DNA from: Thermoproteota archaeon
GTDB lineage: Archaea > Thermoproteota > Thermoprotei > Thermofilales > B9-G17
Length of the DNA: 64,000 bases
Assembly: GCA_029258885.1 (NCBI GenBank)
Contig: JAPDJW010000009.1
Coordinates: 108,879-172,878, forward strand
Reading direction: 5' to 3'
A program made the translations under genes and the position numbers. The notes beneath the pieces are model-generated. The model was not told where the DNA came from. It worked only from the letters and a program-made list of their open reading frames with translations, and ran no database searches. Of this stretch, positions 57,395 to 62,218 are shown piece after piece (position 1 is the stretch's first letter; every line of letters begins with the position of its first letter).

Positions 57395-59041
57395 CTATTC
57401 TAAATGACTAAACTTAATTCTTCCTTTAATTAGGTTAGTTACTATAGCTGGTATTTTTTCTAATTTAACCCTAACCTGTTTTCTCGTATCTCTATCCCTT
57501 ATTGTTACGGTATTATCTCTCATTGTATCTGCATCCACAGTTATACAGTAAGGTACACCCCATTGATCATACCTCTTATACCTCGACCCTATGCTTCCCT
57601 TCTCATCATAGACGATATGGTATTCCGTCTCTTCACATAGCCTACGCCAGATATCCCTAGCTATCTTGGATTCCTCCTTAGCGTATTCTCTCGGCATCAT
57701 AAGCGGGAGTACAGCAGCTTTAACTGGCGCAACCTTCCTATGGAGTTTCAGCCAATCGTACTTCCTATCGACCTTAGCTTTAACGTAAGCGTAGGATAGT
57801 ATCGTCAGTATAGTTCTCTCTATACCAATTGAAGGCTCTATAACGTGGGGTACAACCTTAACTCCATTAACCTCCTCAAGCATTTTCACTCCACTCATCT
57901 TCATATGTTTAGTTAAATCGTAGTCCGTCCTGTAGGCGTTACCAACTATCTCCTTCCATCCAAAGCTAAAGCATATTTCAAGGTCAAAGTTTCCAGCTGA
58001 ATAGTGCGGCGTCTCCTCGGGAAGCATCTCCCTAAATCTAATAGCATTAAATGGGACGCCAAGGTCTTCCGTAAGGAACCTCACTTCCTCAGCGAGAACG
58101 TAGGCCATCCACTCGTTAGGCAGTATACCCCTCTTAACGGCTTCATCCGCCGTAATCTCGACAACTTCCTCGCTGCCCTTAAGCTGAGCCTCCCTAGTAA
58201 GTATCCTTAATAGAGTTTTACGGTACTCCTCGGTAAAGTAGGGGCAATTATTCACCTGACACCTCTTACAATCCATACACTTGGGCCTATACCTCAAATC
58301 CTCGCCAACTATACCCTTCCTCTCAGCCTCCTCTCTACTGAACGGTATACACTTCGCATCCCTCAAAACGAAGTACTCTATCTCCATCTGCTCGAACTCC
58401 CTAAGCCTAAACAAACCCCTCCTCGGCGATATCTCGTTCCTATACGATCTACCTATCTGAGCTATACCAAACGGGGGCTTACCGAAAACATTCCTAATCC
58501 TAGGATAGGATAAGAATATAACCTGTGCAGTCTCCGGGCGTAGAACAGCGTTATCCTCCACTGAAACGCCAACTTTAGTCTTAAACATTAGATAGTGTCT
58601 CCTAACGTCACTAAGCACTCCACCACATACGGGACACTTAAGCCCATTAGACCTTATTATCTCAGTAAGCTCATCAACGCTCTTACCCTCAGCCTTAAGG
58701 TTAAGCTTCTCTTCAATAAGGTGATCGGCCCTAAACGTCCTATTGCATCTAGTACAGAATACTATTGGATCCCAAAAGCTATCCAAGTGGCCGGAGGCCT
58801 TCCACACTATCGTAGGCGTCAATATGCTTCCAGAAATCTCATAGACTCTCTCCTTACTCCATATAAACCTCCTCCTCCAGAGCCTCTTAATCTCCTCCAC
58901 AAGCAACGTACCCAAGTGGCCAAAGGTGTAGAAGCCGGAGAAAGCCTGCTTACTAGAATATATTTCAGCAGTCGGAAATACAACCGCCTCCCTTATCAGG
59001 AAACGCATTATCTCCTCTATCCCAGCTGGCTTTAGCTCCAT
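57395..59041 (-). CDS. glyS: Glycine--tRNA ligase (alpha2 type)
   Basis: ASGHLDSF, LRPETAQ, AQIGRSYRNEISPR, REFEQMEIE, PHVIEPSIG, RYKRYDQWGVPYCITVD. Confidence 0.96.
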   Translation of the reverse strand: MELKPAGIEEIMRFLIREAVVFPTAEIYSSKQAFSGFYTFGHLGTLLVEEIKRLWRRRFIWSKERVYEISGSILTPTIVWKASGHLDSFWDPIVFCTRCNRTFRADHLIEEKLNLKAEGKSVDELTEIIRSNGLKCPVCGGVLSDVRRHYLMFKTKVGVSVEDNAVLRPETAQVIFLSYPRIRNVFGKPPFGIAQIGRSYRNEISPRRGLFRLREFEQMEIEYFVLRDAKCIPFSREEAERKGIVGEDLRYRPKCMDCKRCQVNNCPYFTEEYRKTLLRILTREAQLKGSEEVVEITADEAVKRGILPNEWMAYVLAEEVRFLTEDLGVPFNAIRFREMLPEETPHYSAGNFDLEICFSFGWKEIVGNAYRTDYDLTKHMKMSGVKMLEEVNGVKVVPHVIEPSIGIERTILTILSYAYVKAKVDRKYDWLKLHRKVAPVKAAVLPLMMPREYAKEESKIARDIWRRLCEETEYHIVYDEKGSIGSRYKRYDQWGVPYCITVDADTMRDNTVTIRDRDTRKQVRVKLEKIPAIVTNLIKGRIKFSHLE

Positions 59042-59178
59042 TAAAGCAACCCCTGGATTTTTTCACTGATACACTATTGAACAAAGATATAAATTTACTG
59101 AGATTCGAGAAGGCTGAAGTTGGCATAAAACATCGAAACATGTAGTTAAAAATATATCCAACAATAGCAGATAAATAT

Positions 59179-59255
59179 ACGCCGGTAGTTCAGCCCGGAA
59201 GAATGCCCGGTTCGCACCCGGGAGGTCGCGGGTTCAAATCCCGCCCGGTCCACCA
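59179..59255 (+). tRNA. tRNA-Ala(CGC) with mismatched positions 1-2
   Basis: D stem GTTC/GAAT, anticodon arm CCCGG-TTCGCAC-CCGGG (CGC at 59213-59215), T arm GCGGG-TTCAAAT-CCCGC, 3' CCGGTCC-A-CCA, G3:U70 Ala determinant; 5' strand reads ACGCCGG. Confidence 0.9.
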
Positions 59256-59317: not shown

Positions 59318-59731
59318 TTACTCGCCCATTATCTCAACTATTATTCTCCTCACGCTACGTGGACCGTCGAGTTCAACTAGGAATATGTTCTGCCAAGTAC
59401 CTCTAATTAGTCGTCCATCTTTAACAGGAAATATTCTAGCAGACTCAATGAACGCTGAGGCTAGGTGTGCAGCAGCATTATCATCAATAAGGTTATGCTT
59501 CCACTTACCATCATGCGGATAATCCTCCCTAATCTTAGTAAGCATATCCTCCATTAAGCCGGACTCGTGTTCATTAGCTATAATCGCTGCAGTAGCATGT
59601 GGAGCATAGACAAGACACATCCCATTCTTAATACCGCTCTCCCTAACCGCCTTCTCAACCTCGTAGGTAATATCCACCAGCTCCAGCCGCCTACTAGTCG
59701 AAATCCTAAGCTCCCTAAAGAAGACCTTCAT
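59318..59731 (-). CDS. yjbQ: YjbQ/UPF0047 family protein (secondary thiamine-phosphate synthase family)
   Basis: PHATAAIIANE, HNLIDDNAAAHL, RGTWQNIFLVELDGPR. Confidence 0.92.
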   Translation of the reverse strand: MKVFFRELRISTSRRLELVDITYEVEKAVRESGIKNGMCLVYAPHATAAIIANEHESGLMEDMLTKIREDYPHDGKWKHNLIDDNAAAHLASAFIESARIFPVKDGRLIRGTWQNIFLVELDGPRSVRRIIVEIMGE

Positions 59732-59926: not shown

Positions 59927-60169
59927 ATGAAAGAAATGTACTTGAAAGTAGGTAAAAAGGGCGAAATATATACTTCGAAGGAAATTAGAAATCTGGTAGG
60001 CATTAAGCCATCTGGATATGTCATAGCTAAAATTTCTGAGGGCAAGCTTATAATTGAACCATTAGAAAGGGCTGAGGATATAATTAAGAAACCTAAAAAA
60101 ATCCAACTAACAGTTGAAGAATTTGAGAAGTTAAGTATGGAAGTTCAGAGGGAAATGCTTGAACCATAG
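59927..60169 (+). CDS. AbrB/MazE/SpoVT family antitoxin
   Basis: LKVGKKGEIYTSKEIRNLVGIKPSG..GKLIIEP; overlaps PIN gene; TCCGA/TCGGA inverted boxes at 59856-59878. Confidence 0.85.
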   Translation: MKEMYLKVGKKGEIYTSKEIRNLVGIKPSGYVIAKISEGKLIIEPLERAEDIIKKPKKIQLTVEEFEKLSMEVQREMLEP

Positions 60170-60587
60170 AGGCCTACTGTTGGATACAAGCTATCTACTA
60201 CCCATATTCGGGATAGACATAAGCTTAGAGATGCCTTTAAATGTTATTCTAAACAGTGGACAAAGCCTCCTCTATAATCCCGTAAGCCTCATCGAAATCA
60301 AGTGGGTATACTATAAACTAGTTAGAATGAAGAGAATAGATTTGAGAGATGCGAGGAAAAACTATATCCTAGGATTAAACATCCTAAAAGCAGATGAGAG
60401 ATTTAGAGAAACACCACTTACAACCCCAGCAATAGAGAGAGTAGCAGACATACTCCATGACATGGGTCTTAACGACTATTTCGACCGCATGATAGCAGCC
60501 ACATCAATAGTAGAAAAACTCAAGCTTATAACCGATGATCAAGAACTAAAGTACATAAGGGAGAAATATTTAAAATTCATTAAGTAG
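60159..60587 (+). CDS. vapC: PIN-domain (VapC-like) toxin
   Basis: LLDTSYLLP, SLIEI, DYFDRMIAATS, LITDD. Confidence 0.88.
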   Translation: MNHRGLLLDTSYLLPIFGIDISLEMPLNVILNSGQSLLYNPVSLIEIKWVYYKLVRMKRIDLRDARKNYILGLNILKADERFRETPLTTPAIERVADILHDMGLNDYFDRMIAATSIVEKLKLITDDQELKYIREKYLKFIK

Positions 60588-60607: not shown

Positions 60608-61078
60608 CTATTTTTTCAATATTATAACGTTAAATAATCCTTTTCTTCTACGTTCAATGAGGCCACGTGCTTCAAGTTTATCTAGAATTATACTTACCAT
60701 ACTCTTAGATAGGCCTGATTTATCGACTATCTCACTCTGTAGCGCTACTCCTCCCATTGAGGCTATAATTTCATAGATCCTTCTCTCATTTAAGCTTAGA
60801 TTCTCCATCCTGTGCCGTAGCTCACGCCTAGTTAATTGGAGAAACAGATATATCCCGCTGGCCGTAGCTACGGCTGTAAAGACTATAATCATAACTACAT
60901 CGTATATTGTGTATAGATGGTTGACCTCCTCAACGTATACGTTTAATCCCTCCTGAACCTCAATTCTAATGTTAATTGGACTCTGAACCTCAGAGACAAC
61001 AATATATATGGATATAATGTAGGCTAGTAAAGCCGTAACTCCCAGTAATCTACGCCTTAACTCAATACCTACTCTCAT
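60608..61078 (-). CDS. Membrane-anchored winged-helix transcriptional regulator
   Basis: Two TM segments followed by LQSEIVDKSGLSKSMVSIILDKLEARGLIERRRKG. Confidence 0.85.
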   Translation of the reverse strand: MRVGIELRRRLLGVTALLAYIISIYIVVSEVQSPINIRIEVQEGLNVYVEEVNHLYTIYDVVMIIVFTAVATASGIYLFLQLTRRELRHRMENLSLNERRIYEIIASMGGVALQSEIVDKSGLSKSMVSIILDKLEARGLIERRRKGLFNVIILKK

Positions 61079-61225: not shown

Positions 61226-62218
61226 ATGACTAGGCATATAGCCTTAATCCTCATCCTAGTAATACCGCTATTATTGGTAGCTTTATTTTACTTAGGGATT
61301 GTTTCAAAGTTTAATTTTACACCAGTAATCTCTAGGGGCGTAATTAGGGAAGATGAGCTAATTATAATACGTTTAATAATGCATAGAAATTTAATAAAAG
61401 AAGGGGACGTTTTTATAATTGGAGGAGAAGATATATCGCTATACAGTGGCTATATAAGGATACTATTTCAGACAGACAGCATCCTTATAAGAGTAGGGGA
61501 TCTAAAAATCAGCTTTAGAAGGGACGATTTAGTTAACGGTGTTGCCGTATATAATACAACCGTGAACAATTATCCCTTAAAGGCAGTTGCAGGCATAGTG
61601 GAAAATACGACGTTATCATCATTTCTTAACATTACGGAATGCATATCCATCAACTGTAGCTTTATGAATCTAACTGCATACATAAGCCCCACGTTACAGA
61701 AGTTTAATGGACAAAACATATGCTATAGGTATTGGTATTCAATGCTAATTTTTAGCCAGATAAATAGGACGTATATAGCTCTGCCCTTATCGGATAATAT
61801 AAATGGAACAAAAGTCGTAGTATATGTCAATGTACGTCCGAACTTTAATCTTATACCGGAGAAGCTGCGCTTCCCCACTAAAGGAGAGGATATCCTGGAA
61901 ATAGTAATTCTAAGGGACTTAAGAGGAACTCTCATAATATTTTACTCAGAGGATTTTCTCGAGGAAGAGTTCCTTGAAAAGCCCTATAAGGAGGAGACGA
62001 GATTGATATTAAGTATTCTCGAGAATAACAAAATTGTAAGGAATATGTTAAACAGTAACTGTACAATTGAAAAAATTGGTGTAAGTAGATTTGGATACAA
62101 GCTCCATTCGGCATATGTATATATTAGCTGTAGGGAGCTGGAGAATTACAGGATAATAGTAGTGGTAAATCCAAAATCATCTAATATAGATAGAATAATT
62201 CTCACGCCGAGAGGGTAA
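61226..62218 (+). CDS. Hypothetical N-terminally anchored extracellular protein
   Basis: N-terminal hydrophobic helix, many N-x-S/T sequons; no family recognised. Confidence 0.65.
   Translation: MTRHIALILILVIPLLLVALFYLGIVSKFNFTPVISRGVIREDELIIIRLIMHRNLIKEGDVFIIGGEDISLYSGYIRILFQTDSILIRVGDLKISFRRDDLVNGVAVYNTTVNNYPLKAVAGIVENTTLSSFLNITECISINCSFMNLTAYISPTLQKFNGQNICYRYWYSMLIFSQINRTYIALPLSDNINGTKVVVYVNVRPNFNLIPEKLRFPTKGEDILEIVILRDLRGTLIIFYSEDFLEEEFLEKPYKEETRLILSILENNKIVRNMLNSNCTIEKIGVSRFGYKLHSAYVYISCRELENYRIIVVVNPKSSNIDRIILTPRG

Follow-up and report, generated by a model that had tools for sequence, protein, structure and literature searches.

The window, a stretch of 64,000 nucleotides of archaeal DNA, contains a tRNA-Ala(CGC) gene whose first two nucleotides cannot pair with the 3' strand of the acceptor stem, and the question that this locus raises is how, if at all, such a gene yields a working tRNA. 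The genome to which the window belongs (G000, the window genome) is that of an uncultured hydrothermal-vent archaeon and comprises 2.1 Mb in 26 contigs, with 99.9% completeness by marker genes.

Anatomy of the tRNA-Ala(CGC) gene

ARAGORN assigned positions 59179-59255 (+) to tRNA-Ala(cgc), and the Rfam tRNA model (RF00005) matched this gene over model positions 1-71 with 50.5 bits, against a gathering score of 29. The cmscan alignment to the same model revealed non-canonical pairs at 1:72 and 2:71 only, and direct reading of the acceptor strands gave 5' ACGCCGG and 3' CCGGTCC. A1 faces C72 and C2 faces C71 as unpaired A.C and C.C combinations, and the encoded acceptor pairs run from 3:70 to 7:66 only, short of the full seven. 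All arms of the cloverleaf are intact, and the alanine identity elements G3 (59181):U70 (59249) and A73 (59252) are present; by its score and by these elements the gene belongs to the Rfam tRNA family with isotype Ala. An earlier note on this DNA had described the tRNA as intact except at pairs 1:72 and 2:71, and these data bear that description out. Compared with the intact tRNA-Ala(UGC), the body of the gene is 90% identical and its T stem carries a compensatory exchange; the CC at positions 71-72 is kept in all Ala tRNA genes of the window genome and its relatives. In other families of the order, every Ala tRNA gene found begins GGGCCGG, in line with the initial G's that the note had expected of an archaeal tRNA-Ala. 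The features of the locus are listed in Table 1.

Table 1 Features of the tRNA-Ala(CGC) locus in window coordinates
Feature	Position	Strand	Basis or remark
Class II aminoacyl-tRNA synthetase-like ORF	57395-59041	-	Upstream of tRNA-Ala(CGC), divergent
BRE/TATA promoter motif, TAAAAATATATC	59147..59158	+	EM search, 60 nt upstream of 41 tRNA genes; genome consensus GAAAAnTTTATA
Filler A, C at nominal tRNA positions 1-2; unable to pair with C72/C71 and probably outside the mature tRNA	59179..59180	+	Sequence; cmscan; 6 independent assemblies
G3, first paired nucleotide and predicted transcription start (C/G pyrimidine-purine step)	59181	+	Spacing and step statistics over 13 genes; leaderless-mRNA calibration
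Encoded tRNA-Ala(CGC) body, positions 3-73 (5-bp acceptor remnant, D, anticodon and T arms, A73)	59181..59252	+	ARAGORN, Rfam
Anticodon CGC	59213-59215	+	Within the tRNA-Ala(CGC) body
C71 and C72, unpaired 3'-strand nucleotides, would-be template for G2 and G1	59250..59251	+	Sequence
CCA end, genome-encoded	59253..59255	+	Sequence; within the ARAGORN call
UPF0047 ORF	59318-59731	-	Downstream of tRNA-Ala(CGC), convergent

The gene is flanked by ORFs on both sides with no other tRNA gene adjoining, and no gene bearing on tRNA 5' processing was found near it. A 330-aa ORF of the window (61226-62218, +), which is without a Pfam match, adjoins a MarR/TrmB-like regulator (60608-61078, -) and a PIN-domain ORF (60159-60587, +).

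We considered whether the defect is an artefact, marks a dead gene, or conceals an intron or split gene that brings the missing GG from elsewhere. Positions 59179-59180 are spanned by contigs of four runs, each from a different study, which show no alternative letter there although they differ from the window at 58958, 59033 and 59038; two JGI metagenome contigs carry AC as well. These six independent assemblies all read AC, not the GG that the earlier note had thought the raw reads might show, and their agreement rules out an assembly error. No second tRNA-Ala(CGC) was found in the window genome, which settles another point that the note had raised, and a metagenome scan for diverged copies of the defective gene returned the same population only. 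With its arms intact, no second copy and the compensatory T-stem change relative to tRNA-Ala(UGC), the gene was also ruled out as a pseudogene. In favor of a hidden intron, the window genome has many tRNA introns, and in Thermoproteales non-canonical introns near position 3/4 are known. The region within 250 nt upstream was searched for the missing nucleotides together with a 4-bp helix partner of the exon start. Neither Ala(CGC), for which this means a GG with such a partner, nor Pro(CGG), another of the affected genes described below, had an upstream exon or bulge-helix-bulge candidate in that interval; the note had seen none at Ala(CGC) by eye. The matches for Gly(GCC) fell inside the neighboring tRNA-Thr gene, and those for the other affected genes lay inside a neighboring tRNA or upstream of the promoter only. 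Moreover, the promoter motif lies directly upstream of tRNA-Ala(CGC), and an exon of 1 nt is not credible for the seven genes that lack G1 only. A non-canonical intron or split gene was rejected on these grounds, and we consider it extremely improbable that an artefact, a dead gene or a hidden intron accounts for the missing bases.

Recurrence in the genome and restriction to one family

The 5' and 3' acceptor strands were lined up for the 41 tRNA genes found with Rfam in the window genome, the anticodons of intron-bearing genes being read by eye. In 13 of the 41, unpaired nucleotides are confined to 5' position 1, positions 1-2 or positions 1-3, and the 3' strand is canonical in all 13. One nucleotide is missing from seven genes (a CAU tRNA at C3:76786, Lys(UUU), Gly(UCC), Arg(CCU), Val(CAC), Arg(UCG) and Ala(GGC)), two are missing from four (Ala(CGC), Arg(CCG), Arg(UCU) and Pro(GGG)) and three from two (Gly(GCC) and Pro(CGG)). 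The earlier note had singled out tRNA-Ala(CGC) as one unusual gene; the defect is real, but it is not isolated, being one of 13 in the genome and part of a trait common to the sister genus. Three of the defective genes align to the Rfam model only from position 3 or 4, and tRNA finders under-score or clip genes of this set.

All 13 defective genes are present in single copy, each as the sole gene for its anticodon. Between the closest paralogues, differences are limited to the anticodon and the 1-3 nucleotides at the 5' end: Pro(CGG) is 98.6% identical to the intact Pro(UGG) from position 4 onward, and Lys(UUU) is 96% identical to Lys(CUU). Because they are single copies, sole for their anticodons and near-identical to their paralogues, these genes cannot be pseudogenes. 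The genome cannot dispense with Lys(UUU), Gly(GCC), Gly(UCC) and four Arg tRNAs, and therefore the genes must yield working tRNAs. The tRNA-Ala(CGC) itself may be dispensable, with tRNA-Ala(UGC) able to read GCG by wobble.

The tRNA genes are spread very unevenly over the window genome: the largest contig (647 kb) carries tRNA-His only, C4 (181 kb) carries none, and C2 and C3 hold nearly all. Two weak tRNA matches, G000:C3:131649-131715 (-) and G000:C2:377966-378032 (+), scored 30 and 29 bits, respectively, and share an identical upstream stretch of about 60 nt in which a tRNA 5' end (GCCCCGGTCGTATAGCC...) is already present; the pair resembles a duplicated tRNA gene with a Glu/Asp-like acceptor that an insertion or a non-canonical intron interrupts early on.

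The sister genus is represented by G001, the only other genome of the same family. There, 5 of 39 tRNA genes read TT or CT instead of G1-G2 opposite CGGGCCC, and Val(CAC) and the CAU tRNA, which lack G1 only in the window genome, are without G1-G2. The CGGGCCC 3' strand, with its unpaired CCC, is kept in both genera although the T stems have diverged. Across 41 genomes of the order, a count limited to the GGGCCCG/CGGGCCC stem type gave 224 intact and 0 defective genes in the 39 genomes of other families, and 7 intact and 11 defective genes in the two genomes of this family. With 13 of 41 genes defective here, and none of 224 genes with this stem in the remaining 39 genomes, the defect is thus more than chance. 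The 5'-incomplete tRNA genes are, as a trait, restricted to one family. An isolated tRNA gene reading CGGCCGG opposite CCGGCCC (C1.C72) occurs in G025 (L022), a genome from another family of the order that encodes a Thg1-like protein (TLP), the 3'-5' polymerase considered below.

When the pattern search was extended to the 120 genomes of the class, the matches outside the family, in Pyrobaculum-like genomes, were false positives, the true 5' end being further upstream and the match lying inside an intron. A wider scan, covering one genome per species in 185,579 species (GTDB), returned 75 stretches, and G001 was the only genome with more than one match. Twenty of the 75 loci were read, and real single mismatches were found mixed with intron artefacts and chance non-tRNA matches; several matches in Nitrososphaerales, Micrarchaeota and other archaea were intron-type false positives as in the Pyrobaculum-like genomes. 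Among the 20 loci, the real single mismatches came from two Alkanophaga species, Archaeon HR01, a Bathyarchaeota MAG and a Lucifugimonas strain. Ca. Alkanophaga volatiphilum and liquidiphilum (L076, L098), both TLP-positive, have a tRNA-Val(GAC) with G1 paired and U2 or C2 opposite C71, and A. volatiphilum has a second affected gene with TGGGCCG/CGGCCCC (G121:C11:24372). With a 5'-strand mismatch in only 2 of 41 genes, A. volatiphilum was rejected as a second case in spite of its TLP and provides a baseline for the 13 of 41 seen here. Archaeon HR01 (L127), the Bathyarchaeota MAG (L080) and Ca. Lucifugimonas marina (L143) each have one tRNA gene with position 2 unpaired, in which CT, GA or AT precedes GCCCG opposite CGGGCCC (CT before GCCCG in HR01). 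No Thg1-family gene was found in these three genomes, those of HR01 and the Bathyarchaeota MAG being possibly incomplete, and therefore mismatched 5' ends can exist without a Thg1-like enzyme.

Promoter geometry, the Thg1-like protein and the source of the missing bases

An EM motif search on the regions upstream of the tRNA genes yielded the BRE/TATA consensus GAAAAnTTTATA. At tRNA-Ala(CGC) the motif coincides with a TATA-like tract that the earlier note had pointed out at 59146-59158. Among the defective genes, the motif ends 22-25 nt (median 24, n = 13) before the first nucleotide of the uninterrupted paired run, the 22 nt between the motif end and G3 in tRNA-Ala(CGC) being the shortest spacing of the 13; among the intact genes, it ends at a median of 26 nt (mode 25) before G1. 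As a calibration, genome-wide motif matches followed by start codons of long ORFs peaked at 24-25 nt, as expected for start codons of likely leaderless mRNAs. The paired run is immediately preceded by a pyrimidine in 13/13 defective genes versus 7/27 intact genes (Fisher 1.3e-5), and the first paired nucleotide is G in 12 of the 13. A pyrimidine-purine step at such a distance is the expected archaeal transcription start, and in tRNA-Ala(CGC) this step is C59180/G59181. Promoter spacing resolves the start site only within about 2 nt; taken with the pyrimidine-purine statistics, it leads us to infer a start at G3, and the position 3 start with which the note had found the promoter compatible agrees with this spacing. 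The promoter geometry suggests that the mismatched 5' bases may never be transcribed. A run search listed 24 sequencing runs, and none with this organism is recorded as RNA.

The earlier note had proposed looking for a Thg1 or TLP gene, and the window genome indeed has a single Thg1-family gene, at G000:C2:186889-187683 (264 aa). The protein contains Pfam Thg1 (98.5 bits) and Thg1C (34.3 bits) domains, both above the Pfam cut-offs, and matches the Methanosarcina acetivorans TLP (MaTLP, PDB 5AXK) with 187 bits. Its DG and SDE motifs align with D21 and D69/E70 of MaTLP, the residues with catalytic roles in that enzyme (PMC4820378), and the catalytic carboxylates are conserved; the organism with the 13 defective genes thus encodes a Thg1-like 3'-5' polymerase of its own. 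A DUF72 ORF (L001:2262-2975, +) begins 3 nt past the TLP stop codon and may be co-transcribed with the TLP gene. A search of the genome contigs for related loci with the TLP as query gave no match. In tRNA-His, the G-1 that faces C73 (G000:C1:35065-35066, -) and the CCA end are both encoded in the genome, and the TLP is therefore not needed for classical G-1 addition, unless RNase P removes G-1. G001 also has one TLP gene. In the order, 23 of 41 genomes carry a TLP gene and defective genes occur only in the family of the window genome, so that TLP presence was rejected as a simple predictor of the trait; the TLP may nevertheless be necessary for it.

In vitro, MaTLP repairs tRNA lacking G1 or G1-G2, prefers a 5'-triphosphate, acts on the monophosphate form with about 10% of that activity and stops by measuring the stem (PMC4820378), and templated addition by archaeal and bacterial TLPs extends to all four nucleotides (PMC3061083). 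We infer that the addition reaction and the enzyme responsible are of this kind in the window genome. As the best explanation, which we judge to have a somewhat better than even chance, tRNA-Ala(CGC) is functional but 5'-incomplete: its RNA begins at the first paired G, either through initiation there or through trimming, and the TLP restores the absent bases on the template of the 3' strand. The earlier note had likewise proposed that G1-G2 are added after transcription; those of its checks that were run here all came out in its favor, and its interpretation is supported in part. Initiation by the archaeal RNA polymerase would fall on the first paired purine (G3, 59181), about 23-26 nt downstream of the BRE/TATA motif, and would yield a leaderless 5'-triphosphate tRNA without G1 and G2. 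Alternatively, a mini-leader of 1-3 nt could be taken off by RNase P. The single TLP would then add G2 and G1 in the 3'-to-5' direction on the C71/C72 template and would halt once the 7-bp stem is complete. In the other affected genes the addition would take place opposite C72, C71 and C70, or opposite G71 in tRNA-Gly(GCC). For an enzyme of the MaTLP type, primary transcripts with a start inside the stem would be ideal substrates. The wide spread of the TLP in the order, with the trait in one family only, counts against this explanation, as do the single defective-looking genes of Archaeon HR01 and the Bathyarchaeota MAG, genomes in which no TLP was found. We also know of no in vitro demonstration that an archaeal TLP tolerates the loss of the third nucleotide.

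The mismatched nucleotides might instead be kept in the mature tRNA, with RNase P cutting at the nominal -1/+1 site and a frayed A1.C72/C2.C71 end that works, likewise in the other 12 genes. The window genome has an RNase P RNA of full model length (G000:C3:46453-46758, 153 bits); it is of the ordinary archaeal kind, and no match to the type-T (Pyrobaculum) RNase P was obtained. Genes of the same kind occur as singletons in genomes in which no TLP was found and, at 2/41, in the TLP-bearing Alkanophaga, and frayed ends may therefore be tolerated occasionally. Retention would, however, leave six tRNAs with acceptor stems of 4 or 5 bp, and this in an organism that lives at vents and builds its tRNA stems almost wholly from G-C pairs, and elongation factor binding needs a paired 1:72. 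It also leaves unexplained the conservation of the 3' CC or CCC across two genera, the invariable pyrimidine before the paired run, and a promoter that is shifted closer by more than the number of missing bases. We regard retention as unlikely, though the likeliest of the alternatives to fill-in by the TLP.

The promoter geometry fits equally well with tRNAs that are made 5'-shortened, by starting at or being cut before the first paired G, and are used in that form, with a stem of 4-6 bp, a longer 3' overhang and no fill-in. Although this reading has no enzyme step to assume, nucleotides 70-72 of the 3' strand would be free to drift under it, yet intact paralogues and the sister genus have exactly the same nucleotides there. 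Synthetases and the geometry of the CCA end depend on a 7-bp stem with a 4-nt overhang, and the genome retains an enzyme for which just such an RNA is the best substrate in vitro. Use in the shortened form is on this account distinctly unlikely. Still less probable, in our estimate, is a supply of the 5' nucleotides by another route, namely slippage of RNA polymerase on the initial G's or another enzyme. Six of the seven genes without G1 only begin with GG, where a G could be gained by reiterative initiation, which gives slippage some support; it cannot make G1-G2 before a single G3 followed by C, as in tRNA-Ala(CGC), or G-C-G for tRNA-Gly(GCC).

Fill-in by the TLP can be taken one step further. 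It is conceivable, and we hold this tentatively at a little less than an even chance, that a third of the tRNA genes in this family start inside the acceptor stem, and that 5'-triphosphate tRNAs 1-3 nt short are obligatorily completed by the TLP without RNase P or a nuclease.

Comparison with known systems

Many archaea and bacteria have TLPs, and in vitro these enzymes repair 5'-truncated tRNAs. To our knowledge, their natural role in these organisms has been open since 2010, and we know of no natural substrate of the two enzymes with demonstrated 5'-end repair, M. acetivorans MaTLP (PDB 5AXK-5AXN) and B. thuringiensis BtTLP. One reason given for this open role is the absence of known prokaryotic tRNA genes with 5' mismatches: Rao et al. 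noted that sequenced archaeal and bacterial tRNA genes lack mismatches that would need editing, so that an editing role of the TLP was unlikely (PMC3061083). We found no later report of such archaeal or bacterial genes in the published literature. The TLP of the window genome resembles MaTLP in its sequence and aligned catalytic motifs, and MaTLP fills G1 or G1-G2 opposite C72/C71; unlike the situation for MaTLP and BtTLP, the window genome would supply 5'-mismatched tRNAs as substrates. Thirteen sole-copy tRNA genes without a fully encoded acceptor stem would give the TLP an essential job and, if its completion of these tRNAs is indeed obligatory, would be the first case of a prokaryotic TLP with a set of natural, essential substrates. 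The natural role of the enzyme could then be tested directly, for which one recombinant protein and a few transcripts would suffice.

Two further systems share parts of this picture. Nanoarchaeum equitans lacks RNase P, and its tRNA genes encode complete stems. As with its leaderless tRNAs, the promoters of the tRNA genes in the window genome may lie at a short fixed distance that would place the start at the tRNA's own 5' purine; unlike in N. equitans, a full-size RNase P RNA is present and the start would fall inside the stem. Addition of G-1 to tRNA-His by Thg1 involves the same enzyme superfamily and the same 3'-5' chemistry, but here tRNA-His encodes its G-1, and 13 other tRNA species are affected, with an addition that would be templated and extend to 3 nt.

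The closest parallel is mitochondrial 5' tRNA editing, as in Acanthamoeba castellanii, Dictyostelium discoideum (TLP3), Physarum and chytrid fungi. There, a TLP repairs tRNAs after removal of mismatched 5' nucleotides, and the affected set varies between related lineages (PMC6471195). In the window genome, too, many genes (13 of 41) have mismatches only at the first three 5' positions opposite an intact 3' template strand, a Thg1-like polymerase is encoded, and the set of affected tRNAs differs from that of the sister genus. Unlike their mitochondrial counterparts, these genes lie on an archaeal chromosome rather than in an organelle, what is missing is almost always a G opposite C, and transcription may set in at the first paired G, which would possibly make the nuclease step unnecessary. 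Decay under cover of repair is the usual argument for organelle RNA editing. If the proposed mechanism is true, this family would provide a second, independent case in which a repair activity was made indispensable after genes had decayed under its cover, and, with completion by the TLP obligatory, an independently arisen chromosomal counterpart of mitochondrial 5' tRNA editing.
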